From NCBI GenBank assembly GCA_016182875.1, contig JACPFQ010000004.1:183556-247555 (forward strand): 64,000 nt of DNA, read 5' to 3'. The notes under the pieces were generated by a model. That model was not told the DNA's origin. It worked only from the letters and a program-made list of their open reading frames with translations, and ran no database searches. The stretch comes from Candidatus Doudnabacteria bacterium (GTDB lineage: Bacteria; Patescibacteriota; Doudnabacteria; UBA920; O2-02-FULL-48-8). This document shows positions 4,823-59,265 of the stretch, piece by piece; the stretch's first letter is position 1, and each line of letters begins with the position of its first letter. A program made the position numbers and the translations under genes.

Positions 4823-6067
4823 ATGCCAAGCAAAATGAATCCATTTAAATCCGCCATGCAGCAGCTGACTGAAGCGGCGGCGGTCATGAAGCTGGATAAG
4901 GAAATCCTATCAGCACTTCGCGAACCAGACCGCACCATAAACGTCAGCCTGCCCGTTCGCATGGATGATGGCCGAATAAAAGTTTTTCAAGGCTACAGAA
5001 TCCAGTACAATGACGCCCGCGGGCCTTATAAAGGCGGAATGCGCTACCATCCGCAGGTAAATATGGATGAAATAAAAGCCTTGGGTTTTTTGCAGACCAT
5101 CAAAAACGCCGTGGTCAATTTGTTTTATGGCGGCGCCAAAGGCGGGATTAGCGTTGACCCCAAAAAATTGTCCAAAGCCGAGCTTGAGCGGCTGTCTCGA
5201 ATGTTCATCCAAAGAATCGCTAAGGACATTGGTCCAGAAACTGACGTTCCGGCCCCGGACGTCAATACCGACTCGGAAATTATGGGCTGGATGGTTGACG
5301 AGTATTCAAAAATCGTGGGTAAATTTACGCCGGCCGCGATAACCGGAAAACCCTTGAGCCTCGGCGGCTCGCAAGGCCGGGAAGAGGCGACTGGCTACGG
5401 CGGCATGGTCGTTTTGAAGCAAATTCTAAAAGAGCAAAAAATCAAAAAGCTGCCGACAGTCGCCGTTCAGGGATTTGGCAATGTTGGCTACTTTTTTGCC
5501 TTATTCGCCCAGTCTTCCAACTTCAAAGTCGTCGCGGTTTCCGACTCGAAGGGCGGAATTTACTCGGCTAAAGGACTGGATGTCAGGAAGGTTCACGAGT
5601 GGAAGAAGCAAATGGGGCAGCTGAAGGGCTACCCGGGAAGCACCACCCTTTCGAACGAGCAGCTGCTTGAGCTGCCGGTTGACGTTTTGGTTCCAGCGGC
5701 CTTGGAAAATCAAATTCACAAAGACAACGCGAAAAAAATTCAGGCCAGGATTATCGTGGAAATGGGCAACGGTCCGGTAACCGCGGAAGCCGACCCGATC
5801 TTGATAAAAAGAAAAATTTTGGTCGTCCCGGACGTTTTGGCCAACTCCGGAGGCGTGGCCACTTCTTATCTTGAATGGTCCCAAAATCGAAGCGGCGTTT
5901 ACTGGTCGGAGCAGGAGGTATTGCAGAAGCTAGAAGCATACATGATTGCCGCAACCCGCAACGTTTTGTCGACTGTTCGCGAATACAAGGTCGCCGATTT
6001 GCGCACTGCGGCCTTTATTTTGGCGCTTAGGCGCATTGCTGATGCAATGCAGGCCAGAGGGCTGTAG
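4823..6067 (+). CDS. gdhA: glutamate dehydrogenase (Glu/Leu/Phe/Val dehydrogenase family)
   Basis: GGxxxGGAKGG-type motifs (FYGGAKGGISVDP), QGFGNVG NAD(P)-binding Rossmann motif. Confidence 0.9.
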   Translation: MPSKMNPFKSAMQQLTEAAAVMKLDKEILSALREPDRTINVSLPVRMDDGRIKVFQGYRIQYNDARGPYKGGMRYHPQVNMDEIKALGFLQTIKNAVVNLFYGGAKGGISVDPKKLSKAELERLSRMFIQRIAKDIGPETDVPAPDVNTDSEIMGWMVDEYSKIVGKFTPAAITGKPLSLGGSQGREEATGYGGMVVLKQILKEQKIKKLPTVAVQGFGNVGYFFALFAQSSNFKVVAVSDSKGGIYSAKGLDVRKVHEWKKQMGQLKGYPGSTTLSNEQLLELPVDVLVPAALENQIHKDNAKKIQARIIVEMGNGPVTAEADPILIKRKILVVPDVLANSGGVATSYLEWSQNRSGVYWSEQEVLQKLEAYMIAATRNVLSTVREYKVADLRTAAFILALRRIADAMQARGL

Positions 6068-7801: not shown

Positions 7802-7821
7802 AGAATTATTTTTTAATGATT

Positions 7822-7879
7822 AATTTTGAATTTTGATTCAAATTCGAATTTAAGAAATTAGAATATTCATTCGAAATTC
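7822..7879. repeat. 58-bp intergenic repeat, copy 1 (second copy 59266..59323)
   Basis: Identical aattttgaattttgattcaaattcgaatttaagaaattagaatattcattcgaaattc in both rpsF-ssb and der-LCP intergenic regions; contains two short palindromes. Confidence 0.6.
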
Positions 7880-11836: not shown

Positions 11837-11972
11837 GCGGTCAAGACCTATCACTGCTTCGCCAAGGCTTCGCAGTGCTAGCACTGCTTAGTTTCAACGG
11901 CGTAGTGCAAGCAGTGTCCTGCGTAGCTTTCTTGTTCTTCGTAGCTTCAGCGAAGAAGAAAGCGAAGCAGGG
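11837..11972. repeat. MITE-like palindromic element flanked by 9-bp direct repeat cttatatta (11828..11836 and 11973..11981)
   Basis: Shares cactgcttcgccaaggcttcgcagtgctagca...gcagtgtcctgcgtagcttt...gcgaagcagg with 60920..60980; internal inverted repeats. Confidence 0.55.
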
Positions 11973-12990: not shown

Positions 12991-13020
12991 GAGAGTATTA
13001 TAGCTTAATTTTATAACCCC

Positions 13021-13099
13021 TCCCAGCCTCCCCTTATATTAAGGGGAGGAGTAATAAATTCCCCCTCTTAAAATAAGAGGGGGCTAGGGGGAGTTATTA
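13021..13099. repeat. C-rich/G-rich twin-hairpin element (cccagccYcccc...ccccctcttaaaataagaggggg...gggggagttat)
   Basis: Related copy 18972..19039 inside uvrC; similar short cccctc/gagggg hairpins at 53798..53822 and 54046..54070. Confidence 0.5.
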
Positions 13100-14845
13100 T
13101 ACCTCAATCACTACCGGTAATATCATGGGCCGGCGTTCGGTGCGCTGATAGAGGAATTCCCCGATTTGGTCGCGGACTTCGGAGCGGATGTAGGCCCAGC
13201 TGGGTTCAGCCTGCTTCATTTTGCTTTTAGTCTCCACGATTTTACGCACTTCGTGCTTGACTTCCTTGAGCAAATCCTCCGAGCCCTTCATATAAATGAA
13301 TCCGCGGGAGATAATGTCTGGCGGTTGGGCCAGCTTTCCGGTGGCGCGCTCCAAGGACATGATAATGACGAACATACCGTCCGTGCTCATAACCTGGCGG
13401 TCACGTAGCACGACCTCGCCGACGTCGCCCACACCCAAGCCGTCCACGAATACATAACCGGTTGGGATTTTGGCTTCTGACACTCGGACTTTGCCGGAAG
13501 GATCGAGTTCCAGCATCTGCCCGTTATCCAGGGTAAAGATGTTTTCTTCCGGCACTCCGACATTGCGGGCTAGATTGGCGTGGGCCACCAACATGTGGTA
13601 TTCGCCGTGAATGGGCATGAAATATTTCGGCCTGGTCAAGCCGATCATGAGTTTCAAGTCTTCCTGGTAAGCGTGGCCAGAAGTGTGGATGTCAAGAATC
13701 TTCATGTAAAGAACCTTGGCCCCTTGTCGGGCTAGGTTGGACAGGGTCGATGAAATCGACCGCTCGTTGCCGGGGATCGGAGAAGCGGAAACAATGACCG
13801 TATCGCCCTTTTTGATTTCAATGGTTTTATGCTCCCCGCGGGCAATGCGGGCCAAGGCCGAAAATTCTTCGCCTTGAGAGCCCGTAGTCAGAATAACGAC
13901 CTGGTTGTCCGGCAGTTTGCGGGCCTGCTCCATTTTGATAATCATGTTTTTGGCCGGCAGTTTGAGGTATCCCGTAGCCAGACAAATTTCAACGCTGTTG
14001 ACTAACGACCGGCCGGTGACGACCACTTTCCGGTTGCTTTTGTCGGCGGCGTCGAATAATTGCTGGACGCGGCCGATAAGCGTTGAGAAGGTTGTGAAGA
14101 TCACGCGGCCCTTGGCATCCATAAGCAGGCGGTCAATGGTTTCGCCCAGCGTTTTTTCGGACATCGAGTAGCCCGGCTTTTCGGCGTTAGTCGAATCAGA
14201 CATGAGCAAGGCCACGCCCTCGCCCCCGAATTTGGCCAATTTATCAAACTCCGTCGGCTTGCCGTCCACCGGCGTGTGGTCGAATTTCCAGTCCGTGGCA
14301 TATACAATCAGTCCGGCCGGGGAATTGATGGCCAGGCCGATGCTGTCCGGAATATTGTGGTTGAGCCGGAAGAATCTGATTCGGAAGTTGCCCAAGGTTA
14401 AAATATCGTCCTTATTGAGTTCGAAAATTTTAGAGCGACCGAGCAGATGAAATTCATCCAGGCGCTTCTTAATGAATTCACCGGTCAGCTTCATGGTATA
14501 GATGGGCGGGTCGCCGATTTTGGGCAGGATATAGGGAATGGCTCCGATATGGTCCAAGTGGCCGTGAGTGACAATCACTCCTTTAATGCGTTTTTTATTT
14601 TCTTCCAGATACTTGGTGTTGGGAATGATGTAGTCGATGCCAGGCATGGTTTCATCCGGGAAACCAAGTCCCATATCGATGACCAAAATATCGTCGCCGT
14701 ATTCCATGATGGTCATGTTTTCGCCGACTTCTTCGATTCCGCCCAAAGGAATGACCTTTAGTGTTTGTTTGGCGTCGAGTTTGACTGCTTGAGCCTGTTG
14801 AGCAGGACGGTTGAGGACCGCAGTTTGCGTTCTACGCATAATCAT
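13097..14845 (-). CDS. rnj: ribonuclease J (metallo-beta-lactamase/beta-CASP)
   Basis: HGHLDHIG motif, beta-CASP and C-terminal domain length. Confidence 0.9.
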   Translation of the reverse strand: MIMRRTQTAVLNRPAQQAQAVKLDAKQTLKVIPLGGIEEVGENMTIMEYGDDILVIDMGLGFPDETMPGIDYIIPNTKYLEENKKRIKGVIVTHGHLDHIGAIPYILPKIGDPPIYTMKLTGEFIKKRLDEFHLLGRSKIFELNKDDILTLGNFRIRFFRLNHNIPDSIGLAINSPAGLIVYATDWKFDHTPVDGKPTEFDKLAKFGGEGVALLMSDSTNAEKPGYSMSEKTLGETIDRLLMDAKGRVIFTTFSTLIGRVQQLFDAADKSNRKVVVTGRSLVNSVEICLATGYLKLPAKNMIIKMEQARKLPDNQVVILTTGSQGEEFSALARIARGEHKTIEIKKGDTVIVSASPIPGNERSISSTLSNLARQGAKVLYMKILDIHTSGHAYQEDLKLMIGLTRPKYFMPIHGEYHMLVAHANLARNVGVPEENIFTLDNGQMLELDPSGKVRVSEAKIPTGYVFVDGLGVGDVGEVVLRDRQVMSTDGMFVIIMSLERATGKLAQPPDIISRGFIYMKGSEDLLKEVKHEVRKIVETKSKMKQAEPSWAYIRSEVRDQIGEFLYQRTERRPMILPVVIEV

Positions 14846-17254: not shown

Positions 17255-19174
17255 TTAAAGACTGGCCTTTATTTTTTCAGCCGCGGAGTTCCCGACAACG
17301 CGCGCCAGCTCTCCCAATGTCGCTTTGCGAATTTGAGCGACAGACCCAAAGGTTGTCAGCAGCATTTTTTTCTTGGCCGGTCCAATGCCTGCGATTTCAT
17401 CCAAAGTCGAGAGGCGCGAGGCTTTGGATCTGAGCTTTCGGTGATAGGTGATGGCAAAACGATGAGCCTCGTCGCGAATGCGTTGCAGCAAAAAAAGCGC
17501 TATGGAGTTAGGTTGTAAGATTAAGGATTTAGGTTGACCAGGCACAAAGATTTCTTCGAGCTTTTTGGCCAGTCCGATGGTTGCTATATTCAGGTTATAC
17601 ATATGTATAACCTTTTTAGCGACAGAGAGCTGACCCTTACCGCCATCGATGAGGATCAAATCGGGAAGGGGCCAGGTCTTGTCATTGCGAGGAGCCGCAG
17701 GCGACGCGGCAATCTCTTTCTGAGATTGCTTCGCTTCGCTCGCAATGACAGAGCGCATAAATCTACGAGTAAGCATTTCCCTCATCATGGCATAATCATC
17801 CGGCGTGTCTTGGAACTTAATCTTAAACCGCCGATAGTCTTCCTTTTTCGGCCGCCCGAAATCAAACACAATCATTGACCCAACCGCGTTTTTCCCCTGG
17901 ATATTGGAAATATCATACGCTTCGATTCTTCCGGGCAGGGTTTTCAAATTGAGGACGCGCTGAAGTTCTTTGAGCGCGCTCATGAGTCTTGCCTCCTCCA
18001 AAAGCTTCTTGTCTGACTGAGATTCCAGATATTGCTTGGCGTTTTCCTGGCCAAGTTTAATAAGCTTAAGCTTTTGGCCTTTTTTAGGCACTGAGATAAA
18101 GGGCACCTTTTTGGTAGAGAACCCTGACAGTAAAGGTGCCCTTTGTTTTACCGGCGCCAAAATTTCTTTCGGCCAGCTCGAAGCCTCCAAATAATACCTC
18201 GGCAGAAATTCGCTAAGGATTTCGGCAATGCTTGCTCCTTTAGTATTTTCAAGAATAAAATTTTCCTGGCGGATGAGCTTGCCTTCGCGGACTACAAAAA
18301 GGTTCACAGCAGCCGCTGTGGCTTCTATGTAAACGCTGAACACGTCCTGGTCAATTTTTTTTGGATAGACAAGTTTCTGCCTTTCGAGCACGCGGTTAAG
18401 CGCATAAATTTGGTCGCGGACTCTTGCCGCTTTTTCAAACAATTTGGCTCGGGCGTAGCCCTGCATCCGCAATTTTAGGTGTTTAAGAATTTCTGACTGC
18501 CGGCCCTGCAGAAATTCCATGATTTTATTTATGTAGTTTTTTCGGTACTCTTCCAAGGAGATTTTGCCTATACATACTCCCGGGCATTTGCCGATATGGT
18601 AGTAAAAACACGGATGGTTGCTGATTTTTTTGTTGCCGCAGTAAGGGAAAATTTTTCTTAGTAGCCGTAGCGTGTCTTTGATGGAAGCGCTGGAAGTATA
18701 GGGTCCGAAGTAGCGCGCCGATTTATCGGCAGATTTTCTCTCATAGCTAATCGTGGGAATTTCGTCGGCCAAATTGATTTTGACGAATAGGTAATTTTTG
18801 TCATCCCGCAGTAAAATGTTGTACTTGGGTTTGAGCTGTTTGATGAAATTGTTTTCCAGAAGCAGGCTCTCCAGCTCATTGTCGGTAACGGTGTAATCGA
18901 AATCTTTGATCTGCGTGATCATGAGCTGGATTCTCGGCGATAACTCCCCCGCTTTGCCAAGGGCTTTGTCACCCAGCCCCCGGCGGGTAGTGAGGGAGGG
19001 AGTTTCTCTTAATTTAAGAGGGGGTTGGGGGGAGTTATAAAAATGCGAACGCACGCGATTCTTAAGATTAATCGCTTTGCCGACATAAAGAACCAGCCCC
19101 TTGGCGTCTTTGAATGTATAGACACCCGGCTTGCTGGGAAGTTCTTTGATTTTGTCAGCTAGAGCTTTTTGCAT
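17255..19174 (-). CDS. uvrC: excinuclease ABC subunit C
   Basis: GIY-YIG (PGVYxFKD...LYVGKA), UvrC homology, RNase H-like/HhH C-terminus; start set at Met 19174 (the upstream 15 codons lie in a repeat). Confidence 0.9.
   Translation of the reverse strand: MQKALADKIKELPSKPGVYTFKDAKGLVLYVGKAINLKNRVRSHFYNSPQPPLKLRETPSLTTRRGLGDKALGKAGELSPRIQLMITQIKDFDYTVTDNELESLLLENNFIKQLKPKYNILLRDDKNYLFVKINLADEIPTISYERKSADKSARYFGPYTSSASIKDTLRLLRKIFPYCGNKKISNHPCFYYHIGKCPGVCIGKISLEEYRKNYINKIMEFLQGRQSEILKHLKLRMQGYARAKLFEKAARVRDQIYALNRVLERQKLVYPKKIDQDVFSVYIEATAAAVNLFVVREGKLIRQENFILENTKGASIAEILSEFLPRYYLEASSWPKEILAPVKQRAPLLSGFSTKKVPFISVPKKGQKLKLIKLGQENAKQYLESQSDKKLLEEARLMSALKELQRVLNLKTLPGRIEAYDISNIQGKNAVGSMIVFDFGRPKKEDYRRFKIKFQDTPDDYAMMREMLTRRFMRSVIASEAKQSQKEIAASPAAPRNDKTWPLPDLILIDGGKGQLSVAKKVIHMYNLNIATIGLAKKLEEIFVPGQPKSLILQPNSIALFLLQRIRDEAHRFAITYHRKLRSKASRLSTLDEIAGIGPAKKKMLLTTFGSVAQIRKATLGELARVVGNSAAEKIKASL
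17682..17750. repeat. ~69-bp palindromic element (GCGAGCGAAGCGAAGCAATCTC core) lying in frame inside uvrC
   Basis: tcattgcgag...gcaatctctttctgagattgc...ctcgcaatga; encodes ...SVIASEAKQSQKEIAAS...; same core at 30043, 57501, 28989, 32062. Confidence 0.55.
18972..19039. repeat. C-rich hairpin element (family of 13021..13099) lying in frame in the uvrC GIY-YIG region
   Basis: cccagcccccgg...ctcttaatttaagaggggg ttggggggagttat; adds ~25-30 residues (SPQPPLKLRETPSLTTRRGLGDKALGKAGE) between RVRSHF and IQLMITQI. Confidence 0.5.
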
Positions 19175-19179
19175 GGAGA

Positions 19180-19240
19180 TAGATTGCTTCGTCGGCTTCG
19201 CCTCCTCGCAAATGCGCATTCGCGAGCGGACGAAGTCCGC
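19180..19240. repeat. ~60-bp repeat, copy A (inverted copy at 23337..23400)
   Basis: tagattgcttcgtcggcttcgcctcctcgcaaatg(g)cgcat... present in opposite orientation 4.1 kb away. Confidence 0.55.
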
Positions 19241-19359
19241 GTGGCGATCTAATCATTGACGCAACTGATTATATCATAGTAAACTTAGCTGTTCTGCGGA
19301 ATGGTTCCGCGGCACCTTACCAGGGCCTGTATTGGCTCAAAGAACCGGAGGGTTCAGGT

Positions 19360-19854
19360 ATGACATTTCAACATTTGTTCGCGATCTTGGGCGGCGAAGA
19401 AGGGTTTGGATGGTTGACGGCCATCCAGAGACCGGACATGGAAGACGGAACGGTTCATTTTGAGTGGTCGACAGATTGGCCGGTCAAGATTGTTCGCGTC
19501 CGTTCCCTCACAAACGATTCGCTCAACCTTCCGAAAGGAAAGAAGTTCAACCTTTTCATCTACGGCTCAACCGTGGCGAAGCGAAGGCCGTGGGGAGTCG
19601 TGCTCGTCAAAGAATTGCCCGTCAATGACGACGGCACGAACGTGTTAAAGGTATTGCAGGCGGAAGTGAAACGACAGCGTTCGCTTTGTGCACTTTGTGC
19701 TGGCGACCAGGAGTTCCGGCTGCATCAAATCGCTGTGGGGGTTTGCCCCGAGAGGTTCGTGCCGGAGCATCTACTTTATCAGCACACCATTGTCTACTTA
19801 CCCCGTAACAAGCGAGTGCGGCTCGACACTCTGCTCGACGAAGCTGCAACTTAG
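19360..19854 (+). CDS. GC-rich orphan hypothetical protein (164 aa)
   Basis: GGAGGG RBS, own terminator; ~60% GC island between uvrC and uvrA. Confidence 0.5.
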   Translation: MTFQHLFAILGGEEGFGWLTAIQRPDMEDGTVHFEWSTDWPVKIVRVRSLTNDSLNLPKGKKFNLFIYGSTVAKRRPWGVVLVKELPVNDDGTNVLKVLQAEVKRQRSLCALCAGDQEFRLHQIAVGVCPERFVPEHLLYQHTIVYLPRNKRVRLDTLLDEAAT

Positions 19855-19867
19855 CTTCGACAAACGC

Positions 19868-19916
19868 CCTCCCTGGCAATTGATCTTTGTCGGTCTTGCC
19901 AGGGCGGTTTTTTTTC
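19868..19916 (+). terminator. rho-independent terminator
   Basis: ccctggcaa...ttgccaggg hairpin followed by T9. Confidence 0.7.
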
Positions 19917-20096
19917 CCGACGCGCAAGCGGTCGGGATCCCGACCTCGATGCAATCGAGCGTCGGGATTTTTTCTGTCTGCCTAAGGCTCTTGCATAGGG
20001 GATAATTTCCGTATATACTGTCCAGGCAATTTTGAACCCTCGAAAACGAGGGTTATCTGACCATCTTTGATTTTCAGACTTAAGAGTGGATACTAT

Positions 20097-22958
20097 ATGA
20101 CAGAAAAGATCACCGTCCGCGGCGCCCGGGTCCATAATCTCAAGAACATCAACGTCGATATCCCCAGGAACAAACTCGTGGTCATCACGGGTCTTTCGGG
20201 CAGCGGCAAATCCTCGCTGGCATTCGATACTATATATGCCGAAGGCCAGAGACGCTACGTGGAGTCCCTCTCTGCGTATGCCAGGCAGTTTTTGGGCTTG
20301 ATGGATAAGCCGGACGTGGACAAAATCGAAGGTTTGTCGCCAGCCATCTCCATTGACCAAAAATCCGCTTCGCATAACCCCCGCTCCACGGTCGGCACGG
20401 TTACGGAAATTTATGATTATTTAAGATTGCTGTTTGCCCGGGCAGGCACTCCTCACTGCGCTGTTTGCGGCAAGCAGATCATCGGCCAGTCCGTAACGCA
20501 AATGGTCGACCAGATTGTATCCTGGCCGCAATCAACAAAAATCGTCATTTTGGCGCCAATGGTTAAGGATCAGAAAGGCGAGCACAAGCATTTGTTGGAG
20601 GAGCTTAAGAAGACCGGCTACCAGAGGGTCCGAGTGGACAGTACGATTATGGATATTTCCGAGGCTCTGAATTTGAACATCGATAAGAAAAAGAAGCACA
20701 CCATCGATGTCGTCGTGGACAGGCTCGCTTTGGATTCCGAAGACCGCGCCCGCATTGCCGATTCGCTCGAAACCGCGCTTGATTTGGGCAATGATGCGGT
20801 CATCGTGCAGAAAGGGGGTAATGGGGATAATGGGAGTAAAGGGCAAGAAATATTGTTTTCTGCCAACTTCACTTGCCCCGATGGCCACATGAGTTTACCT
20901 GAGCTTAATCCCAGGAATTTTTCGTTTAATTCTCCGCACGGCGCCTGCCCTGACTGTACGGGACTTGGCACTAGGCTGGAAATCGATCCCGAATTGGTCA
21001 TCCCAAATCAGAAGCTGACTCTGGCTGAAGGAGCGGTCCGGCCGTGGAGCAAGACGACTTCGCGTTTGAGCTGGTATTCGGAAATCTTGGAGGAACTGGC
21101 TGAGCGGTTTGGCAGTTCGGTGCATACGCCGGTGAAGGATTTGCCCAAAAAATTCGTGGACGCGGTGCTGTACGGCTCAGGTTCATTCGAAGGCGTGATC
21201 AACAACCTCATGCGCCGGTACAAGGAAACCGACTCCGATTACATGCGGTCGGAAATTGAGCAGTATATGAGAATTAAAACCTGTCCGACCTGCAAAGGCA
21301 AAAGACTCAAACCCGAATTTTTGGCCGTAACCGTGTTTAATCGCTCCATTGTCGATTTGGCGAATTTGCACATCGACGACGCGCTGGAGTTCTTCGAAAC
21401 GCTCCCCAAAAAACTTTCGGAAAAGGAACAAAAAATCGCCCATCAGATTCTCAAGGAGATTTCCCTTCGGCTTAAATTTTTGCAGGACGTCGGCTTAAAT
21501 TACCTGACCCTCGACCGCTCAGCCGACACGCTTTCCGGGGGCGAAGCGCAAAGAATCCGGCTGGCGACCCAGATTGGTTCCGGCCTGACCGGGGTTTTAT
21601 ACATTCTAGACGAGCCGTCAATCGGGCTTCACCAGCGGGACAACGCCCGGCTGCTCAGAACGCTTAAAAGTTTGCGTGATTTGGGCAATACCGTAATCGT
21701 GGTTGAGCACGACGAGGAAACGATTAATGCTTCGGATTGGGTGGTGGATATCGGTCCCGGAGCCGGCAAGCACGGCGGGCATGTGGTGGCCGAAGGAACC
21801 CCGAAAGAGATTAGCCGGAACAAATCCTCCTTGACCGGCAAGTACTTGGCCGGAATAGAATCAATTCCACTGCCAGAAGCAAGGCGGCCGGGCAGCAGCC
21901 GGACCCTGAAAATTGTCGGCGCGTCCGAGTTTAATTTGAAAGATATAGACGTCGAAGTGCCCCTGGGCAAGTTTGTTTGCTTAACCGGAGTTTCCGGCAG
22001 CGGTAAATCAACTCTGCTCAACGAAATTTTGGCCAAAGCCTTGTCAGCTTATTTTTACAACGCCAAAGAGTCGCCCGGGGCGCATAAGAAAATTCTGGGA
22101 ATCGAAAACATTGATAAAATCATAAATATCGACCAGTCTCCGATTGGACGCACGCCGCGCTCCAACCCCGCCACCTATACCGGCGTCTTTACCTATATCC
22201 GGGATTTGTTTGCCGCCACGCCGGAAGCCAGAATGCGCGGGTACAAAGCAGGGAGGTTCAGCTTCAACGTCAAAGGCGGGCGGTGCGAAGTCTGCGGCGG
22301 TGACGGCGTAATCAAGATTGAAATGCATTTTTTGCCGGATGTCTATGTGGCCTGCGAGGAGTGCAAAGGCAAGCGCTACAACAAAGAGGCGCTGGACATC
22401 CACTATAAAGGCAAAAATATCTCCGATGTTTTGGAGATGACCGTGGATGAAGCGCATGTGTTCTTCCGCAACGTGCCGCTGATTGCCCGCAAGCTGGAAA
22501 CCTTGTCTCTGGTGGGGCTGGGTTATATGCACCTCGGTCAGCAGGCGACCACGCTTTCCGGCGGTGAGGCGCAAAGAATCAAGCTCGCTACCGAACTTTC
22601 CCGCGCCTCGACCGGCAAGACTTTGTATATTTTGGATGAGCCGACCACTGGCTTGCATTTTGAGGATGTAAAAAGGCTTTTGGGGGTACTTAATCGTTTA
22701 GTCGAAAAAGGCAATACAGTTCTTGTGATTGAACACAACCTCGACGTAATCAAGAATGCGGACTGGGTAATTGATTTGGGACCTGAAGGCGGCGACAAGG
22801 GCGGGGAAGTGGTGGCTATCGGCACTCCCGAGGATGTGGCCAAGGTCAAGCGGAGCTACACCGGCCAATACTTAGTAAGGGTTTTGTCCGCCAAAGGCGG
22901 ATCCGCCTCCGGCGGAAAAGAAAAAGAGAAGGTAAAGGAAAAAGTGAGAGTGAAATAG
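20097..22958 (+). CDS. uvrA: excinuclease ABC subunit A
   Basis: Two ABC ATPase modules ([20 protein letters not shown]), zinc-finger CxxC pairs. Confidence 0.95.
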
Positions 22959-23333: not shown

Positions 23334-23336
23334 TAG

Positions 23337-23400
23337 ACTGCTTCGCTAATCGCTCGCAGATGCGCCATTTGCGAGGAGGCGAAGCCGACGAAGCAATCTA
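23337..23400. repeat. ~60-bp repeat, inverted copy of 19180..19240
   Basis: Reverse complement of gtgtttagattgcttcgtcggcttcgcctcctcgcaaatggcgcat... Confidence 0.55.
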
Positions 23401-23544
23401 AACACATGCAAAACATTTTTTCTAAACTTAGCCATCATACCAACCCTTTCCCGCTTGGAGAGGTTGGTTAGGTATGCTTTAAGAAAAATTTTTCTTCCCA
23501 ACCCCTGCAAGCCTGCCGGGGTTTTTAATTAAGCTTGATATTTT

Positions 23545-28146: not shown

Positions 28147-28191
28147 TGGCACTTGACAGGGTTGAGTGCTAGGGTTAAAATATTGGCACTC
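28147..28191. promoter_or_regulatory. CIRCE-like HrcA operator (TGGCACTT-N9-GAGTGCTAG followed by a third half-site TGGCACTC)
   Basis: Resembles the TTAGCACTC-N9-GAGTGCTAA consensus; directly upstream of hrcA. Confidence 0.45.
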
Positions 28192-28211
28192 CTAATGTTT
28201 AAGTGCTAACT

Positions 28212-28943
28212 ATGGATACTCGCAAACAGAGGATTTTAGCAGCAATCGTCAAAGAATACTCCGAAACGGCAAATCCTGTGGGCTCCAAGGAACTGGTAGA
28301 CAGGTATAATTTCACGGAAAGCCCTGCCACCATCCGCAACGAAATGGCTGATTTGGAGAAAGATGGCTATATCTTTCAGCCGCATAAATCCGCCGGCCGC
28401 GTCCCCACAGACAAAGGCTATCGGTTTTTCGTCAACGAATTAATGCGCCGGTTTGAATTATCAGAAAAAGAACGCCGGATGCTTAAACACGAACTCCTGA
28501 AATTGCAGGTTCAACAGGAACAGCTGGGACGTTCCATCTCGAATTTACTGTCCCAGGTTTCAGGCCAAGCCGCGTTCGCGCTTCTGCCCAATCAATCCTC
28601 GGCCACCGGGCTTTCGCAAATTATAGGCGAGCCGGAGTTTGCGGATTCCAAGCAAATGAAGCAAGTAGCCCAGTTGCTTGAGCATATTGATGAGCACGCC
28701 AGCAAATTAATTAAAAAATCAGAGATAACAGCAGAAGCGTTTATCGGGAGCGAAGCCAAGTTCCCGGTGCCCAAGAATTTAAGTCTGGTGGTTTCCAATG
28801 TCAAAATGAAAGACGGCAAGAAAGGCGTCATCGGCATCATCGGCCCCAAGCGCATGGCCTATGCCAAGAATTTGTCCATCATTAATTATTTAGCGAAATT
28901 AATAAGCGGCGCTGCAGTGATAATTTTGATAATTAAAATATAA
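28212..28943 (+). CDS. hrcA: heat-inducible transcriptional repressor HrcA (short form)
   Basis: N-terminal winged-HTH region (RQRxIL..IV..Y..T..PVGSK.L) and operon with grpE-dnaK. Confidence 0.8.
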   Translation: MDTRKQRILAAIVKEYSETANPVGSKELVDRYNFTESPATIRNEMADLEKDGYIFQPHKSAGRVPTDKGYRFFVNELMRRFELSEKERRMLKHELLKLQVQQEQLGRSISNLLSQVSGQAAFALLPNQSSATGLSQIIGEPEFADSKQMKQVAQLLEHIDEHASKLIKKSEITAEAFIGSEAKFPVPKNLSLVVSNVKMKDGKKGVIGIIGPKRMAYAKNLSIINYLAKLISGAAVIILIIKI

Positions 28944-28988: not shown

Positions 28989-29046
28989 TGTCATCCTGAG
29001 CGAAGCGAAGGATCTCATGAGATTCTTCACTGCGTTCAGAATGACA
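28989..29046. repeat. palindromic element (tgtcatcctgagcgaagcgaaggatctc / gagattc...gcgttcagaatgaca)
   Basis: Variant of the GCGAAGCGAAG palindromic family; supplies the spurious N-terminal codons of the grpE ORF. Confidence 0.55.
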
Positions 29047-29550
29047 AACACGAATATGTCAGACGAGAATAATCAAACCCAGGAAGCTACAGTTGAGGAA
29101 CTGCAGGCTAAGAACGAAGAATTTTTGAATAACTGGAAGCGCGTAGCGGCGGACTTGGAAAACTTCCGCAAACGCCGCGAAGCGGAGAATAAGGAATTGC
29201 TGGAATTCGCCAAGGAAATGGCGGCAATCAAGCTTCTGCCTTCCCTGCAAAGTCTGGAACAGGTCTTGAAGTTCGCGCCGAATGATGAGAAGTACAAAGG
29301 CTGGCTCGACGGCCTCAAAGCTACGATCTTGCAGCTCGAGAAGGCCATGGAAGAGCTGGGCTTGAAAAAAATCAACACGGTCGGCGAGAATTTCGACCAC
29401 GAACTGCACGAAGCCGTGGAAGAAGCGGAAGGAGAAGACGGTAAAGTTTTAAAAGAATTGCAACCGGGTTTTATGCTGCATAACAAAGTAATCATCCCGG
29501 CCAAGGTCGTGGTCGGAAAAAAGTTAAGCGATTCGAATATAGCGAATTGA
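29041..29550 (+). CDS. grpE: nucleotide exchange factor GrpE
   Basis: GrpE coiled-coil plus C-terminal beta domain similarity; start uncertain (29041 or 29056). Confidence 0.85.
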   Translation: MTNTNMSDENNQTQEATVEELQAKNEEFLNNWKRVAADLENFRKRREAENKELLEFAKEMAAIKLLPSLQSLEQVLKFAPNDEKYKGWLDGLKATILQLEKAMEELGLKKINTVGENFDHELHEAVEEAEGEDGKVLKELQPGFMLHNKVIIPAKVVVGKKLSDSNIAN

Positions 29551-29624
29551 CATGCGAAAGATGCGAATCGATTCGTGTCATTCGAATGTCCAATTCGTGG
29601 CTTCGTATCGCTGAAGGAGTAATT

Positions 29625-30035
29625 ATGACACATTTAGTAAGATGGACACCTTTTCGAGAGCTTGAGAAAGCCTTTGAAGATGACTTCTTCTCAATTGCTA
29701 CTCGAATTCATTCGCCTGCGGTTAATCTCTACGAAACGGAGAACGAAGTCGTGGCTGAGGTTTCCATTCCCGGGATCGATCCAAAAAAGGTAAGTGTGGA
29801 AATCGAGAATAACGTGCTTCATATCCGCGGCGAGGAGTCGTCGGAGCAAGAGGATAAAGGCAGAGACTATTACCGGAAAGAAATAAGGTCTGGAATGTTC
29901 GGCCGCTCGATCGGACTGCCGACTGAAGTCGACGCCGATAAGGTTAAGGCGACCTCGCAAAACGGGATCCTAAAGATCGTCATGCCCAAGAGCGAAAAGT
30001 CAAAGCCCAAGCGGGTGGATGTCGAGGTAAAGTAA
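29625..30035 (+). CDS. Hsp20/alpha-crystallin family small heat-shock protein
   Basis: Alpha-crystallin domain (...AEVSIPGIDPKKVSVE...GILKIVMPK); AAGGAG RBS. Confidence 0.8.
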   Translation: MTHLVRWTPFRELEKAFEDDFFSIATRIHSPAVNLYETENEVVAEVSIPGIDPKKVSVEIENNVLHIRGEESSEQEDKGRDYYRKEIRSGMFGRSIGLPTEVDADKVKATSQNGILKIVMPKSEKSKPKRVDVEVK

Positions 30036-30042
30036 GAATTAT

Positions 30043-30131
30043 TGTCTTTGCGAGCGAAGCGAAGCAATCTCATCCCGAGAAAAGAGATTGCTTCGTCGAC
30101 CGGCAATTCGCCGGTCTCCTCGCAAAGACAG
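30043..30131. repeat. 89-bp nested palindromic element in the dnaK 5' region
   Basis: tgtctttgcgag|cgaagcgaagcaatctc...gagattgcttcg|tcgaccggcaattcgccggtc|tcctcgcaaagacag, three nested stems. Confidence 0.6.
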
Positions 30132-30199
30132 CTTGATGAGTCTACGAAAAAGGTTCGCAGATTCGTTTAGCTAAATAATCACGAAAGGACAAAACAAGC

Positions 30200-32053
30200 A
30201 TGGCAAATAAAATAATCGGCATTGATTTGGGAACATCAAACAGTGCAGCGTCGGTAATGGAAGCAGGCAGCGCGGTGATCATCCCTTCTGCCGAAGGGCA
30301 AACCGCATCGGGCAAGGCGTTCCCGTCTTACGTGGCCTTCTCCAAAGACGGCCAGCTTCTGGTTGGCGAACCGGCGAGGAGACAGGCAGTGACCAACCCC
30401 GAAGGCACGGCGTTTGAATTCAAGCGCAAGATGGGCACCACTCAAAAGTTCACTTTGCAGGGGAAAGAATACACACCGGAACAGCTTTCGGCTTTCTTGC
30501 TTCAAAAAATCAAGAAGGACGCCGAGGCTTATTTGGGGCAGCCAGTGGCCAAAGCCGTGATTACGGTGCCGGCTTACTTTGATGATAGCCAGAGGCTGGC
30601 CACCAAGAACGCCGGGGAAATCGCGGGACTGGAAGTGGTGCGCGTGATAAACGAGCCGACAGCCGCGGCGTTTGCCTATGGCATCGACAAAAGCCACCAG
30701 GAGCAGAAAATTCTGGTGTTTGATTTGGGCGGCGGCACGCTTGATGTGACGATCATGGACTTTGGCGAGGAAAAAGGCCAGGCGACATTTGAGGTGCTTT
30801 CGACCTCAGGCGATACGCAGCTTGGCGGCAAAGACATGGATGCGGCTCTAATCAACTTCGTAGCGGAAGAGTTTAAACGGGAAACTGGAATTGATTTGAA
30901 TTCCGACAAAATGGCCATGAATCGCGTGCGCGAAGCCGTGGAAAAAGCCAAAATCGAGCTTTCGACTGTTTTGGAAACTGATCTTAACTTGCCGTTTATT
31001 TCGGCTGACGCGGCTGGTCCCAAGCATCTGAACATGAAAATCACCCGCGCCAAGCTTGAGGAGCTGGTCAAACCCATCATCGAGCGCATGAAGCAGCCGG
31101 TATCGACAGCACTTTCTGACGCCAAGCTGACTCCTCCGCAGATTGGCAAGATTATTTTGGTCGGCGGTCCCACCAGGATGCCGATTGTCCAGAAATTCGT
31201 GGAAGAGTTCATTGGCAAGCAGGTGGAGCGCGGGGTCGACCCCATGGAAGCCGTGGCCAAAGGAGCGGCTATTCAGGCGGGGGTTTTGTCAGGCGATGTT
31301 TCTGGAAAAGAAATTTTATTGCTTGACGTCACTCCATTGACCTTGGGCCTGGAAACTCTGGGCAGTGTGGCTACGCCGTTGATTGACCGCAACACCACCA
31401 TTCCCACTTCCAAATCGCAAGTTTTTTCCACTGCGGCGGACAACCAGACCTCGGTTGAGATTCATGTGGTCCAGGGCGAGCGGCCTATGGCGGCGGACAA
31501 CAAATCTCTGGGCAGATTTCATCTTGACGGCATTCCGCCGGCGCCAAGGGGGGTGCCGCAGGTCGAAGTCACGTTCGATATTGACGCCAACGGCATTCTG
31601 CATGTGACGGCAAAAGACAAGGCGACGAGCAAGTCGCAGAAGATCAGCATCACCGGCTCAAGCAATCTTTCCAAAGATGAAATCGAAAAGATGAAGAAGG
31701 AAGCCGAGATGCACGCCGAAGAGGATCGCAAGCGCAAAGAGACTATAGATATGAGAAATCAGGCTGACACGTTGATTGCGGTTTCCGAACGGACGCTCAA
31801 AGACGCCGGTGATAAGGTAATAGAAGCTGACCGCAAGGCCGTGAATGAAAAAATCGACGCGCTTAAAGCCGCAAAGGGTGAAGACGATGTCGCGGCCATA
31901 AGGAAAGGGATGGACGAACTTTCGGCTGCCATTCAAAAAGTAGGGGCGGCTATGTACCAGAGTCAGAAAACAGATAACAGCAAGCAGGAAACAGGTAAGA
32001 GCCAACAAGGGCCGGTGGATGCTGAATTCAAAGACGTGAGTGATAAAAAGTGA
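30200..32053 (+). CDS. dnaK: molecular chaperone DnaK (Hsp70)
   Basis: [18 protein letters not shown], full Hsp70 length. Confidence 0.95.
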
Positions 32054-32061
32054 CACGAAAG

Positions 32062-32119
32062 TGTCATCCTGAACGCAGTGAAGGATCCCATGAGATTCAC
32101 AGCGAAGCTCAGAATGACA
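32062..32119. repeat. palindromic element (tgtcatcctgaacgcagtgaaggatccc / gagattcacagcgaagctcagaatgaca)
   Basis: Same family as 28989..29046; just 3' of dnaK. Confidence 0.55.
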
Positions 32120-32427: not shown

Positions 32428-32579
32428 TATGCCAGGTACTGAAATTTTGACCCGCGATTATGTTTTTCAGGTAAAGAACCCTCAATCAAAAACATATCGC
32501 GATATTAATTTTCGACCAGGCATAAGAACAGGCCTTAAGTGGTCGAATAATTAAGTCAAATTTCTAGTACCTGGTATGC
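32427..32579. mobile_element. MITE-like element with ~25-bp terminal inverted repeats; internal copy of the trxB-3'-like repeat
   Basis: Left arm atatgccaggtactgaaattttgacc (32427..32452), right arm gtcaaatttctagtacctggtatgc (32555..32579); interior 32429..32519 ~90% identical to 3628..3714. Confidence 0.5.
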
Positions 32580-55453: not shown

Positions 55454-56113
55454 ATGCCAAGTCATGGAACCCCCCTCTCCGCAACGCATTTGGCGCCGTT
55501 TGTTAGTACGGCGACCAAAGCCCTGATCCTGGTCGCGAATGATCTGGGACAGGGAGTCCAGGAAAGCTGGGCGAACCGGAGCGAAGAAATGCAGTCGCTC
55601 TTCCGCCAGGCGTTTCTGCCGCCGCAACAGACGGGCCAGCCGCTCATGGCGCGCTATATCGTGCCGATCCCGAACATCGCGGTGAACTACGACCGCAAGT
55701 TCGTGGACGCGGCAATGGCCGGTGGTCCGCAGACCCCGTCCAACTACGATGTCCTCAAAGTCGGCGACCTCTACGTCGCCCGGCACAAGGGCATCGTCCG
55801 GCGCAACATCACGATCGTGAACTTCGGGCTGGACGTCAGCTCGGAACAGGCGCAGGAGTTCGGGCAGGCGCACAAACTCGGTCGCACGCTCGATCCATGG
55901 GAGTGCTTCTCCATCGGCGAGCACCGGCCCATGCTCAATCGCGAGCTCGGCTTCGACTACATGGCCGTTGTCTCGTTGGAGAAGTGCGAGTTCGGCGGTG
56001 AGTCGCGAGTCTGCAGCTGCTGGTGGGACGAGCGGGAGCGCGAGGCCGCTCTCAACTGGTTCACCGACGGCTGGCACGTCCGCTGCTGGTTCGGTTTCGT
56101 CCGCGAGTCCTAG
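55454..56113 (+). CDS. DGR variable (target) protein; C-terminal ~38 residues encoded by VR
   Basis: C-terminus ...CEFGGESRVCSCWWDEREREAALNWFTDGWHVRCWFGFVRES lies in the VR; GC-rich (~60%). Confidence 0.8.
   Translation: MPSHGTPLSATHLAPFVSTATKALILVANDLGQGVQESWANRSEEMQSLFRQAFLPPQQTGQPLMARYIVPIPNIAVNYDRKFVDAAMAGGPQTPSNYDVLKVGDLYVARHKGIVRRNITIVNFGLDVSSEQAQEFGQAHKLGRTLDPWECFSIGEHRPMLNRELGFDYMAVVSLEKCEFGGESRVCSCWWDEREREAALNWFTDGWHVRCWFGFVRES
55989..56104 (+). repeat. DGR variable repeat (VR), 116 bp
   Basis: Gap-free alignment to TR 56439..56554 with 17 mismatches, every one at a TR adenine. Confidence 0.85.
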
Positions 56114-56130
56114 GGCTCTGGGGATCTTTG

Positions 56131-56163
56131 GGTTTGAAACTCTGACACTTTGAGTTTCAGACC
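56131..56163 (+). other. GC-clamped hairpin immediately 3' of VR (DGR homing-associated stem-loop candidate)
   Basis: ggtttgaaactc-tgacacttt-gagtttcagacc. Confidence 0.5.
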
Positions 56164-56438
56164 CTGGGTCCCTTTTTCTTTTTTTAAAATTTTGATATCA
56201 TTTTTTCAGATATTAGATCAGTCCGCGGCCATGGTTTCGGACAATCGAATTCCGGAGTTTGATCAGCCAGAATGAGATCGGGCACGCTTGATCTTAGTGT
56301 GTTTTTCAAACTTCCCAAAAGATGAAGAAACTCGGTATAAGGCATTGGCGGATTAGTGTCGCTTAGCGAGATGCTATCCCAAATAAAATTCAACCCCAAG
56401 AGCATTTGAGGGGCGGTGGCATAGATGATGCTTTCTAC

Positions 56439-56554
56439 AATTCGGCGGTAAGTCGCAAGTCTGCAACTGCTGGTGGAACGAGCAGAAGCGCAAGGCCAAT
56501 CTCAACTGGTTCACCAACGACTGGAACGACAACTACTGGTTCGGTTTCGTCCGC
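56439..56554 (+). repeat. DGR template repeat (TR), 116 bp
   Basis: See VR; contains 30 A of which 17 differ in VR (13 A>G, 3 A>C, 1 A>T). Confidence 0.85.
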
Positions 56555-56568
56555 TACTTTCTTCGGCT

Positions 56569-56889
56569 TTATCCCGCCTTTGCGGCGGGATTTTCTTTGC
56601 TGGCTTGTCTATACCAGCCGCCAAGCATTTTGCCGATTTCATTCAGCGGTTCAGAAAGAGCGATGTATTTTTTGGTATCCAAGGCTTTAATCTCCCAGAG
56701 AATCTGCAAGAATAGTTTGAGCAAATCGAGCTTGATTATGGTTTTTTGCAAATATGCAGGTTTCTGCGGCTTCGATGAGTATCCAGCGATAAAACTTAAT
56801 TCAATTGTGCTTAGAAACAATATGTCAATTTTTGCGCCAAGAGTATATTTCGAAGATTTTAAAATGTGCGGCATGAAGCCATACCACAT
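56569..56889 (-). CDS. avd: Avd-like four-helix-bundle protein (23S rRNA IVS-protein family), antisense to the rest of the DGR
   Basis: C-terminal ...LNEIGKMLGGW... and FIAGYSS match the IVS-protein/Avd consensus (..NIAEG..R / ..EEIxKMLNGL..). Confidence 0.55.
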   Translation of the reverse strand: MWYGFMPHILKSSKYTLGAKIDILFLSTIELSFIAGYSSKPQKPAYLQKTIIKLDLLKLFLQILWEIKALDTKKYIALSEPLNEIGKMLGGWYRQASKENPAAKAG

Positions 56890-56966
56890 TTTGTAAGCAG
56901 AAATAAGATGTTGCAGAATCGGAAGATTCCGTTGGGGGGGGGGGCGTTAACAGAGGCAAAATTCAG

Positions 56967-58043
56967 TTGGCTCATGGTTTTGACGAGATTATTTCTGTTG
57001 AGAATCTGCTCTTGGCTTGGCAAGAGTTTATCCGCGGCAAGAGGAATAAGCCGGATGTCCAACTCTTTGCTCACGCTTTGATTGATAATATTTTACAGCT
57101 TCACAATGATTTAGCCAACAAGACTTATCGGCACGGCGGATATTACCAGTTTAAGATTTCCGATCCCAAGCCGCGGGATATCAGCAAAGCCTCGGTTCGC
57201 GATAGGCTTTTGCATCATGCGATATATCGAATCCTGTATCCATTCTTTGACCGGACATTTATCGCTGATTCTTTTTCCTGCCGGGTTGATAAAGGCACGC
57301 ACAAGGCGGTCAACCGATTGCTGGCAATGTTCAGAAAAGCAAGCAAGAACAATACCCGCACATGCTGGGTTCTCAAATGCGACATCAGGAAGTTCTTTGC
57401 CAGCATAGATCATGATGTTTTGAAAAATATTTTAGCTAGACATGTTCCTGACATAGATATGCTTTGGCTTCTAGGGAATATTATTGATAGCTTTGGGTCA
57501 GATTGCTTCGTCGGCCGCCAGACTAAACCCCGGCCAGAAAACCGGCCTCCTCGCAATGACATTAAATCTGTCTTTGCGAGCGAAGCGAAGCAATCTCATA
57601 ACCAGGGTCTTCCCTTAGGCAACCTAACCTCCCAGCTCTTCGTCAACATATATATGAACGAGTTTGACCAGTTTGTGAAGCATAAACTCAAGGTTAAGCA
57701 TTATATACGCTATGCCGATGATTTTATAATTCTATCTCCAAGCGAAGAGGAACTCACTGCAATACTGTCACGTATTGCAGTACTCCTCAAGCAAGAGCTT
57801 AAACTGCGGCTTCATCCACATAAAGTCACTCTTAAAACCTTTGCTTCAGGCATTGATTTTTTAGGGTGGGTTAATTTTCCCCATCATAGAGTGCTACGCA
57901 CAGCCACGAAAAAACGGATGCTTAAGCGTATCCGTGTAAATTCAACCAATGAAACCTTGCAATCTTATTTAGGACTTTTAAAGCACGGGAATACTTTTCA
58001 AAAAATTTTCGCCAGCCCGCAGCAATGGCCGCGGGGAAGTTGA
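56967..58043 (+). CDS. DGR-type reverse transcriptase
   Basis: RT motifs: KCDIRKFFASIDH (2), GLPLGNLTSQLFVNIYMNEFD (4, DGR-specific LGNLTSQ), YIRYADDFIIL (5, YADD), GIDFLGW (7); TTG start after AGAGG RBS. Confidence 0.85.
   Translation: MAHGFDEIISVENLLLAWQEFIRGKRNKPDVQLFAHALIDNILQLHNDLANKTYRHGGYYQFKISDPKPRDISKASVRDRLLHHAIYRILYPFFDRTFIADSFSCRVDKGTHKAVNRLLAMFRKASKNNTRTCWVLKCDIRKFFASIDHDVLKNILARHVPDIDMLWLLGNIIDSFGSDCFVGRQTKPRPENRPPRNDIKSVFASEAKQSHNQGLPLGNLTSQLFVNIYMNEFDQFVKHKLKVKHYIRYADDFIILSPSEEELTAILSRIAVLLKQELKLRLHPHKVTLKTFASGIDFLGWVNFPHHRVLRTATKKRMLKRIRVNSTNETLQSYLGLLKHGNTFQKIFASPQQWPRGS
57501..57597. repeat. ~97-bp palindromic element (GCGAAGCGAAG family) lying in frame within the RT gene between motifs 3 and 4
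   Basis: gattgcttcgtcggccgcc...ccggcctcctcgcaatgaca...tgtctttgcgagcgaagcgaagcaatctc; encodes ...GSDCFVGRQTKPRPENRPPRNDIKSVFASEAKQSH... Confidence 0.5.
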
Positions 58044-59247: not shown

Positions 59248-59265
59248 TAGAAATTTAGAATTAAG

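Follow-up and report, generated by a model that had tools for sequence, protein, structure and literature searches.

In the genome of a Candidatus Doudnabacteria bacterium (GenBank assembly GCA_016182875.1), long palindromes occupy three intergenic spacers of the heat-shock operon that runs from hrcA through grpE, hsp20 and dnaK to a DUF3467 gene, and related palindromes lie on both sides of uvrA. All are contained in a 64,000-nt stretch of contig JACPFQ010000004.1 (positions 183,556 to 247,555), referred to here as the window. Are they regulatory devices of the operon, or mobile repeats that happen to have settled there? A preliminary description of the sequence had considered both possibilities. 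The analysis reported here indicates that the palindromes are in all likelihood copies of a non-autonomous selfish repeat family within the CGTC/TGTC-tagged superfamily of repetitive extragenic palindromic (REP) elements. As such, the selfish reading of the preliminary description is borne out by the tagged hairpin arm, the sharp ends, the absence of target-site duplication, the housekeeping neighbours and the turnover between relatives.

The repeat unit

The repeat unit is the single arm and not the palindrome. An arm begins with a (C/T)GTC tag and continues with a stem of AT plus three variable bases (NNN), GA, the core GCGAAGC, GA or GAA, the complementary N'N'N' plus AT, and a CTC tail. 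The tag is unpaired, the GA steps make up a tandem G·A, and the core is a mini-hairpin of the GCGNAGC type, whose position is taken in longer arms by another GC-rich hairpin. Two arms in inverted orientation make up one palindrome of the window (a dimer), with the tags either outside or inside. The stem reads ATTGC/GCAAT in family 2 and ATCCT/AGGAT in family 1, or ATTCT/AGAAT in family-1 right arms, and in one window arm the core is ACGCAGT in place of GCGAAGC.

The stem was examined in a collection of viral contigs with a scan anchored solely on GTCAT-NNN-GAGCGAAGCGA-(A)-NNN-ATCT, so as to avoid bias towards any stem. The NNN triplets were complementary in 119 of 130 distinct arms (92%), whereas chance would give 1/64. 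Nine stem types were represented, namely TGC (49), TCT (28), CCT (14), TCC (10) and GTT (9), with CCC (5), GCT (2), TTC (1) and ACT (1) as rarer types. The covariation in these viral arms lies within an arm and not between the two arms of a dimer; furthermore, arms of different stem families are found in one dimer, both in the viral scan and in the window (28989-29046). Arms also stand singly or in same-orientation tandem arrays, the arrays being seen only in locus L020 (seven units) and in a few phage contigs such as L139 (L numbers designate loci from other genomes and contigs). Across the loci examined, dimers with tags outside are about four times commoner than those with tags inside. All stem families read GTC-AT...AT-C, a stem start that is partly built in by the GTCAT anchor of the scans, while a Doudnabacteria sub-variant reads GTCTT. 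The frequency of this sub-variant (GTCTTTGC) among Doudnabacteria copies points to amplification within that lineage.

A hairpin is present in 134 of 138 distinct variable arm segments and is closed by a C-G pair in 80 of these 134. GNA triloops account for 52 of 75, with N being A in 28, C in 12, G in 8 and T in 4. Mini-hairpins of the form d(GCGNAGC), described by Hirao and co-workers, occur in single-strand initiation sites and in the hairpin promoters of phage N4. The arm core resembles them in its G-C and C-G closing pairs and in its GNA loop with any N, although the known examples are single functional sites (origins, promoters) and the present ones are interspersed repeats. The very stable DNA mini-hairpin d(GCGNAGC) is formed by GNA loops only (PMC13037366). 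That the arm core obeys this rule is a hint, not proof, that the form under selection is single-stranded DNA.

The window holds seven dimers of 58-98 nt, four with tags outside and three with tags inside (Table 1). The five palindromes of the preliminary description were all recovered with identical boundaries or shifts of 1-3 nt; its list had overlooked two in-frame copies inside open reading frames (ORFs), one in uvrC and one in a reverse-transcriptase gene. The three stems that it had described in the hsp20-dnaK copy are likewise found in the fold, as P1, P2 and a side hairpin. The RNA fold z-scores of all seven palindromes range from -3.5 to -9.3 relative to shuffles. In the pairwise repeat search, the family-1 dimers 28989-29046 and 32062-32119 are 79-81% alike over 58 nt. 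The sequence GCGAAGCGAAG, allowing at most one mismatch, matches the window seven times against 2.3 expected, and none of 100 shuffles reaches seven. The match at 19576 was rejected as a copy since no palindrome surrounds the site, and is regarded as a chance match. All window dimers with tags outside carry TGTC; of the three with tags inside, only 57500-57597 does so, and 19180-19251 and 23334-23400 are without a tag. A strict arm scan of the window barely exceeds shuffles (7 versus 4.2) because variant tags escape it, and for this reason the census was built on pairwise repeats.

Ends, flanks and distribution

In a set of 97 distinct complete dimers, drawn from many organisms, the conserved sequence stops exactly at Y|GTCAT...ATGAC|R, the base before GTC being T in 55, C in 32, G in 6 and A in 4. 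These dimers are 60-184 nt long and multiples of three are not favoured. The 5-mer GTCAT gives 98 such palindromes, compared to 0-2 for control 5-mers. A flanking direct repeat is lacking in 87 of the 97, and the others have 1-3 nt, as chance predicts. The 150 ORFs adjoining elements belong to ordinary housekeeping families with no enrichment of transposases. In bacterial loci, dimer orientation with respect to the flanking genes is near random, with 10 convergent and 4 divergent contexts.

Dimers of this build could be mistaken for classical MITEs (miniature transposable elements with inverted repeats), that is, deletion derivatives of insertion sequences with DDE-type transposases that are mobilised via terminal inverted repeats. 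Such dimers look like a variable core of 4-60 nt enclosed by terminal inverted repeats of 28 nt, and the name MITE has been given to comparable elements of Coxiella and alphaproteobacteria in which the stem is conserved and the tip varies (PMC5896051). However, the missing target-site duplication, the occurrence of arms alone, in tandem or with their supposed ends pointing inward, the mixing of stem families within a dimer together with covariation confined to the arm, and the lack of a transposase either between or beside arm pairs make this origin highly improbable.

The distribution of the arm is wide. The exact 23-mer TTGCGAGCGAAGCGAAGCAATCT occurs at no fewer than 120 loci (at least 120 among the matches listed) in a collection of species-representative genomes. 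Hosts among these matches are Chloroflexota, Planctomycetota, Alpha-, Delta- and Gammaproteobacteria, Bacteroidota, Nitrospirota, Omnitrophota, Zixibacteria, Ignavibacteria, Fibrobacter, Caldisericum and, within Patescibacteria, the lineages Curtissbacteria and Saccharibacteria. The 23-mer is also present in 57 viral contigs, and is rare and unannotated in PLSDB plasmids (8 records) and GenBank phages (2 partial matches). The long arm of the hsp20-dnaK dimer (30085-30129), with its side hairpin GACCGGCAAttcGCCGGTC, has a near-identical copy in Zixibacteria (L003, about 5000-5060), so that even sub-variants are common to different phyla. Copies beyond those of the preliminary description, which had named their absence as grounds for giving up the family, are thus plentiful in other genomes and viral contigs. 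A full-text literature search with the arm sequence matched only unrelated PCR primers.

In a group of related phage contigs (L139 680-4450, L178 3490-5260, L143, L150, L133 and L170), start codons are preceded, at a distance of 5-60 nt, by single or tandem arms; most of these arms are in sense orientation, and a C/T-rich tract often stands before them. Sense and antisense arms in viral contigs number 23 and 11 between genes and 23 and 13 in ORFs. A reading of these arms as a phage hairpin promoter or element of the 5' untranslated region (UTR) was set aside, as this bias is just about 2:1 in contigs that are interrelated.

Relation to known palindromic repeats

The closest described system is the second REP superfamily, whose members are tagged with CGTC, often TGTC or CCTC (Di Nocera, De Gregorio & Rocco 2013, BMC Genomics 14:522; PMC3733652). 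Its four families have stems of 8-9 bp that nearly always start A-T, T-A, loops of 4-5 nt and a 3-nt tail with the consensus CCA (PMC3733652). Dimers with tags outside predominate, those with tags inside are rare, tandem repeats are negligible and heterodimers occur; the copies lie between unidirectional or convergent genes or are intragenic and in frame, adding 20-30 amino acids (aa), notably in uvrA/B/C, uvrD, polA, recBCD and dnaE (PMC3733652). The superfamily is without an associated transposase, includes Neisseria dRS3 and Rickettsia RPE-4/RPE-6, and has been reported from five phyla, mostly from alphaproteobacteria (PMC3733652).

The present elements share with it the unpaired CGTC/TGTC tag, the A-T/T-A stem start and the short unpaired tail, as well as the mostly tags-outside dimers, the heterodimers, the position between unidirectional or convergent genes, the lack of a linked transposase and the in-frame intragenic copies, here in UvrC, a UvrD-type helicase, an aminomethyltransferase (GCV_T) and a reverse transcriptase. 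They differ in that three of seven window dimers have tags inside, an arrangement rare in the published families, and in hosts that reach Patescibacteria, Omnitrophota, Chloroflexota, Planctomycetota, others and phage contigs. Peptides typical of the present families were not found in the supplementary text files of PMC3733652. Agreeing with the superfamily in every qualitative feature, the elements are on sequence grounds filed as further families of it. This extends the CGTC/TGTC-tagged REPs to bacteria of the candidate phyla radiation, to several other phyla and to phage genomes. The arm sequence is not mentioned in a 2025 survey of REPs, and our literature search brought up no publication about Patescibacterial REPs or MITEs, which is absence of evidence only.

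Canonical GTAG-type REPs, their composite forms (bacterial interspersed mosaic elements, BIMEs, and REP doublets forming hairpins, REPINs) and the REP-associated tyrosine transposase (RAYT) that moves them offer a similar architecture. They too are imperfect hairpins of 20-40 nt with a conserved unpaired 5' tag, arranged as singlets, inverted doublets and clusters, lacking target-site duplication and transcribed within operons. The present elements, if of this type, would owe their mobility to a RAYT gene at another place in the genome, and RAYT-like genes do occur in two element-holding loci. However, every published GTAG REP starts with GT[AG]G (PMC2817692), so that the present elements, tagged (C/T)GTC, are not canonical REPs. 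In addition, the RAYT-like genes found are without flanking elements, the same negative as is on record for CGTC REPs (PMC3733652), and the present arm is common across phyla rather than species-specific, with frequent in-frame copies in proteins. A GTAG-type identity is therefore extremely unlikely.

Rickettsia palindromic elements are also selfish palindromic DNA that lies in frame in essential proteins at tolerated sites. RPE-1, for example, is 100-150 bp long, AT-rich and confined to Rickettsia, and we know of no mobilising enzyme for these elements. The present elements have no sequence similarity to RPE-1 and its relatives, and NCBIfam models give no match. Readings as integron attC sites, CRISPR, k-turns or hammerheads were dropped, since the core motifs do not fit the sequence.

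The heat-shock operon

Pfam identifies grpE, hsp20, dnaK and the DUF3467 gene in addition to hrcA in the window operon. DnaK and UvrC of the window match, with 100% identity, proteins from a metagenome-assembled genome of Candidatus Doudnabacteria (Patescibacteria), where they lie on a contig of 327,498 bp. The gene order hrcA-grpE-(hsp20)-dnaK-DUF3467-x-dnaJ is kept in six Doudnabacteria relatives (DnaK 83-89% identical; the contigs of L180 and L181 span part of the operon). Their spacers hold other families or nothing (Table 1), and thus no element of the operon is conserved in position. One junction is shared across families, in that the family-2 dimer of L180 has the same right-hand junction as window 32062-32119 (ATGACA|GAAAGGC).

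Table 1. Dimers and neighbouring features of the window, and spacer contents in Doudnabacteria relatives (positions count from the first base of the window)
Feature	Position	Strand	Remarks
uvrC ORF	17255-19174	-	
Family-2 dimer, tags outside	17680-17750	-	inside uvrC, in frame
Family-2 dimer, tags inside	19180-19251		directly upstream of uvrC (minus-strand start codon at 19174); fold z = -3.6
Family-2 dimer, tags inside	23334-23400		downstream of Trp-repressor-like gene; inverted relative to 19180-19251; fold z = -3.7
Predicted sigma70-type promoter	28153-28181		TTGACA-17-TAAAAT, near consensus; upstream of hrcA
CIRCE-like HrcA operator	28183-28209		TTGGCACTC-N9-AAGTGCTAA, 2 mismatches; directly after promoter, just upstream of hrcA
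hrcA	28203-28943		Pfam
Family-1 dimer, tags outside	28989-29046		hrcA-grpE spacer; 58-nt palindrome; RNA fold -31.7 kcal/mol, z = -6.8
Left arm of 28989-29046	28990-29015		GTC-ATCCT-GA-GCGAAGC-GA-AGGAT-CT
Right arm of 28989-29046	29020-29045	-	stem ATTCT/AGAAT, mini-hairpin ACGCAGT
Family-2 dimer, tags outside	30043-30130		hsp20-dnaK spacer; RNA dG -53.4 kcal/mol, z = -9.3
Short arm of 30043-30130			TGTCTTTGCGAG-CGAAGCG-AAGCAATCTC
Long arm of 30043-30130			side hairpin ACCGGC-aattc-GCCGGT
Family-1 dimer, tags outside	32062-32119		dnaK-DUF3467 spacer; 58-nt palindrome; end 11 nt before DUF3467 ATG; fold z = -3.5
Target ORF of retroelement	55454-56113		
Variable repeat of retroelement	55991-56104		
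Template repeat of retroelement	56441-56554		
Reverse-transcriptase ORF	56967-58043		diversity-generating retroelement type; best solved relative Bordetella-phage bRT 8ub7
Family-2 dimer, tags inside	57500-57597	+	inside reverse-transcriptase gene, in frame
hrcA-grpE spacer			window: family 1; L183: family 2; L180, L184: unrelated C5/G5 palindrome; no palindrome in L182 (32 nt), L185 (16 nt)
hsp20-dnaK spacer			window: family 2; L183, L185: GTCAT-type arms, other stems; L180, L182, L184: unrelated hairpins
dnaK-DUF3467 spacer			window: family 1; L180: family 2, tags outside; L183: family 2, tags inside; L181, L182, L184, L185: unrelated palindromes

The hairpins could nevertheless be functional RNA modules of the operon, for instance by sensing temperature in the dnaK leader, by serving mRNA processing or stability between cistrons, or by attenuation. 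All three lie in one transcription unit and have strong RNA folds, REPs are known to stabilise upstream mRNA (PMC3733652), and a strong hairpin (dG -19 to -64 kcal/mol) stands after dnaK in all seven genomes compared. On the other hand, the hairpins of relatives come from unrelated families and the hrcA-grpE spacer of two relatives is free of any, while identical elements lie in frame in uvrC, in the reverse transcriptase and in phage genes. The thermosensor idea raised in the preliminary description for the dnaK 5' UTR fares no better: the upstream hairpin ends about 55 nt before AAAGGA at about 30186, the ribosome-binding site is unpaired in the fold of the spacer, and the orthologous leaders of five relatives hold different hairpins or families. 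Similarly, its suggestion of terminators finds no counterpart in the window copies, none of which is followed by a T-tract on inspection or called by a terminator scan. Rfam searches at gathering and permissive thresholds returned only tRNAs and noise far below threshold. Moreover, the predicted promoter and the CIRCE (controlling inverted repeat of chaperone expression)-like operator upstream of hrcA would already explain heat-shock control. An RNA-module role is accordingly judged quite unlikely, and the palindromes are in all probability passengers rather than a heat-shock control device or thermosensor. Selection at the level of structure may still operate after dnaK, and the hairpins could have secondary consequences for the stability or processing of mRNA. 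A tempting regulatory story for the operon, which the preliminary description had framed as reused regulatory modules, is thereby removed.

The longest grpE ORF begins at the ATG at 29017, inside the palindrome, which adds MRFFTAFRMTNTN. The true start of grpE is probably the ATG at 29056, as the Pfam match begins at residue 15 of the longest ORF. The short-read contig L001 (Logan SRR12113420), which contains dnaK, begins at window position 30044, one base into the hsp20-dnaK palindrome, and such palindromes appear to break up short-read assemblies. In practice, spurious start codons and ORFs as in grpE, broken short-read assemblies and inflated protein divergence in metagenome-assembled genomes are the effects to be reckoned with.

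A CGAAT-rich palindrome lies in the grpE-hsp20 spacer at 29524-29615, and similar CGAAT-rich hairpins follow dnaK in L182 (5870-5966) and L184 (5825-5939).

Copies around uvrA and inside proteins

Pfam identifies uvrC, the Trp-repressor-like gene and the RVT_1 protein in the window, whereas the assignment of uvrA (ORF 20067-22958) comes from the preliminary description and from synteny, the gene adjoining uvrC in relatives matching UvrA families. The dimers at 19180-19251 and 23334-23400 both have their tags inward and are of opposite orientation, and the pairwise repeat search shows 48 nt (19167-19214 and 23366-23413, 4.1 kb apart) to be 92% complementary. The inverted pair around uvrA seen in the preliminary description is thus real as a similarity, but it does not hold as one unit. 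The family-2 dimer is missing from the uvrA-uvrC spacers of the relatives L338 and L339, and from the spacer after the Trp-repressor gene of L339; on this sequence comparison the pair is the product of two independent insertions and not a composite element.

Inside uvrC, the core of the insert from GTC to GAC measures 69 nt, or 23 codons, and encodes VIASEAKQSQKEIAASPAAPRND. Residues 475-500 of the window UvrC have no counterpart in Thermotoga maritima UvrC (2nrt), whose chain residues 81 and 82 are contiguous. Among 32 Doudnabacteria UvrC proteins (59-72% identical; insert-free length about 587-590 aa), at least six loops hold inserts by presence or absence, their peptides being translated GC-rich palindromes of several families, and 10 of the 32 are empty at the insert site of the window. 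At that same codon position L338 has a family-1 dimer in place of family 2, with an identical TCT|GTC junction and frame, while L339 has a family-2 dimer in another loop. Both the presence and the family of elements therefore change between related genomes, as the spacers of the operon also illustrate. Identical junctions with different families in sister species could reflect replacement through shared termini or a site preference.

An AlphaFold model of the window UvrC is of moderate quality (mean predicted local distance difference test score, pLDDT, 67.5). In the first insert derived from a repeat (residues 47-78) the score stays under 50. Over the second it drops, the means of 10-residue blocks being 71, 53 and 49 and residues 489-497 scoring less than 50; the blocks just before this insert score 46-82, and the domain that follows it 82-88.

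In the reverse transcriptase, the element at 57500-57597 encodes SDCFVGRQTKPRPENRPPRNDIKSVFASEAKQSHN, with SVFASEAKQSHN as a predicted peptide of the insert. Residues 157-211 align to just 20 residues of bRT 8ub7, leaving a surplus of about 35 aa exactly at the tags-inside dimer. Inserted arms are likewise spanned by Pfam domains in other proteins, namely the aminomethyltransferase (GCV_T) of an Omnitrophota genome, a UvrD-type helicase of Curtissbacteria, and a portal protein and a terminase from phages. Pfam and NCBIfam searches with the element-encoded peptides gave no matches. In a genome of about 1 Mb, palindromes thus reshape essential proteins (UvrC twice) as well as the reverse transcriptase, and turn over fast between species.

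The reverse transcriptase belongs to a complete diversity-generating retroelement at 55454-58043, in which 16 of 16 mismatches between the repeats fall at template adenines.

The window also contains a second family of palindromes (CCCCCTCTTAnnnTAAGAGGGGG plus CCTCCCCTTATATTAAGGGGAGG), unrelated to these elements, with copies at 13020-13100 and 19006-19038; further copies are in L180 at 208-309 and in L184 at 2561-2660. One window copy is intergenic and the other lies in frame in the GIY-YIG domain of uvrC (residues 47-78); in two relatives the family occupies the hrcA-grpE spacer.

Mobilisation and points of doubt

How could elements of this kind move? In the scheme that we propose, they would be non-autonomous selfish repeats that depend for copying on a trans-acting enzyme, the most plausible type being HUH (histidine-hydrophobe-histidine)/tyrosine, which would use the arms as folded hairpins of single-stranded DNA. 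The observed copies persist just where they are harmless, namely in short operon spacers, at the 3' ends of genes and, within proteins, in surface loops that tolerate them, the reading frame continuing through the insert. Copies in operons would be transcribed along with the genes and might, as RNA hairpins, have a side effect on the stability of the mRNA. The copying step itself, in which an enzyme of the HUH type working in trans would copy hairpins of single-stranded DNA, is put forward tentatively, as a possibility that falls short of being the probable one. The tie between the arm core and a well-characterised DNA mini-hairpin nonetheless gives a lead on the movement of REPs without a transposase, a question open since 2013.

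The search for a mobilising enzyme gave several negative results. E. coli RayT, used as tblastn query against 1.34 Mb of element-bearing loci, found two weak IS200-like ORFs, neither of them flanked by arms. A regular-expression search for HUH/Y motifs produced no match. The arm pairs spaced by 250-3500 nt in 179 loci included no parent insertion sequence with the same terminal inverted repeats.

Several points weigh against the assignment and the scheme as a whole. The same RayT query found no similar ORF in the window, and ORFs bracketed by the arm pairs just mentioned, or by arrays, are without a transposase domain. Eighty metagenome loci with an IS200-like single-tyrosine (Y1) gene (240 kb), retrieved with the two IS200-like proteins as queries and so covering one Y1 family, contained one dimer, 1.3 kb from the gene. 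The argument for a single-stranded DNA mechanism is a structural one, and the mechanism is to that extent inferred. The sharing of an exact 23-mer by many phyla is unlike the species-specific classical REPs. The present loop has 3 nt (GNA) on a stem of 9 positions (5 Watson-Crick, 2 G·A and 2 G-C pairs), compared to the published 4-5 nt and 8-9 bp, and the tail is CTC or CTN instead of CCA; the elements may be either one of the four published CGTC families or a fifth, a comparison drawn from the written descriptions of those families. Finally, a strong hairpin of some kind follows dnaK in all seven genomes, and selection for structure may therefore play a part there.

A bolder version would make the TGTC-tagged REPs with a mini-hairpin a still-active, phage-carried family of many phyla, and would assign its copying as single-stranded DNA either to a class of enzymes so far without a link to REPs or to ubiquitous machinery of replication and repair. 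We regard this as doubtful. The d(GCGNAGC) hairpin with its GTC/CTC flanks would be a recognition signal, and the identity of a 23-mer from Patescibacteria to Alphaproteobacteria, the missing adjacent transposase and the recurrent DNA-repair hosts would be explained. Furthermore, the dense, family-swapping insertions of Doudnabacteria would offer a natural system for finding the enzyme.

Other repeats in the window

Further repeats of different kinds are scattered through the window. Palindromes of a third family (CACTGCTTCGCCAAGGCTTCGCAGTGCTAGCAGTG), 97% alike, are found at 11852-11916 and 60920-60954, the latter copy abutting the 3' end of tRNA-Val. At 19895-19975, between an orphan ORF (19360-19854) and uvrA, there is a pair of hairpins with GCGCAAGC cores (GCGNNAGC-type) and flanking T runs, which looks like a bidirectional terminator or another mini-hairpin element.

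Two longer repeats are also present. One of about 90 nt, 95% identical between 3627-3715 and 32428-32516, contains the internal inverted repeat CGCGATTATGTTTTT...AAAACATATCGCG; the first copy forms a fusion with a C-terminal fragment of 30 aa that resembles thioredoxin reductase (ORF 3628-3789), and the second follows the DUF3467 gene. The other is an AT-rich direct repeat of 70 nt (7810-7879 and 59254-59323), with copies that are 93% identical, 51 kb apart and of palindromic TTGAATTTTGATTCAAATTCGAA content.

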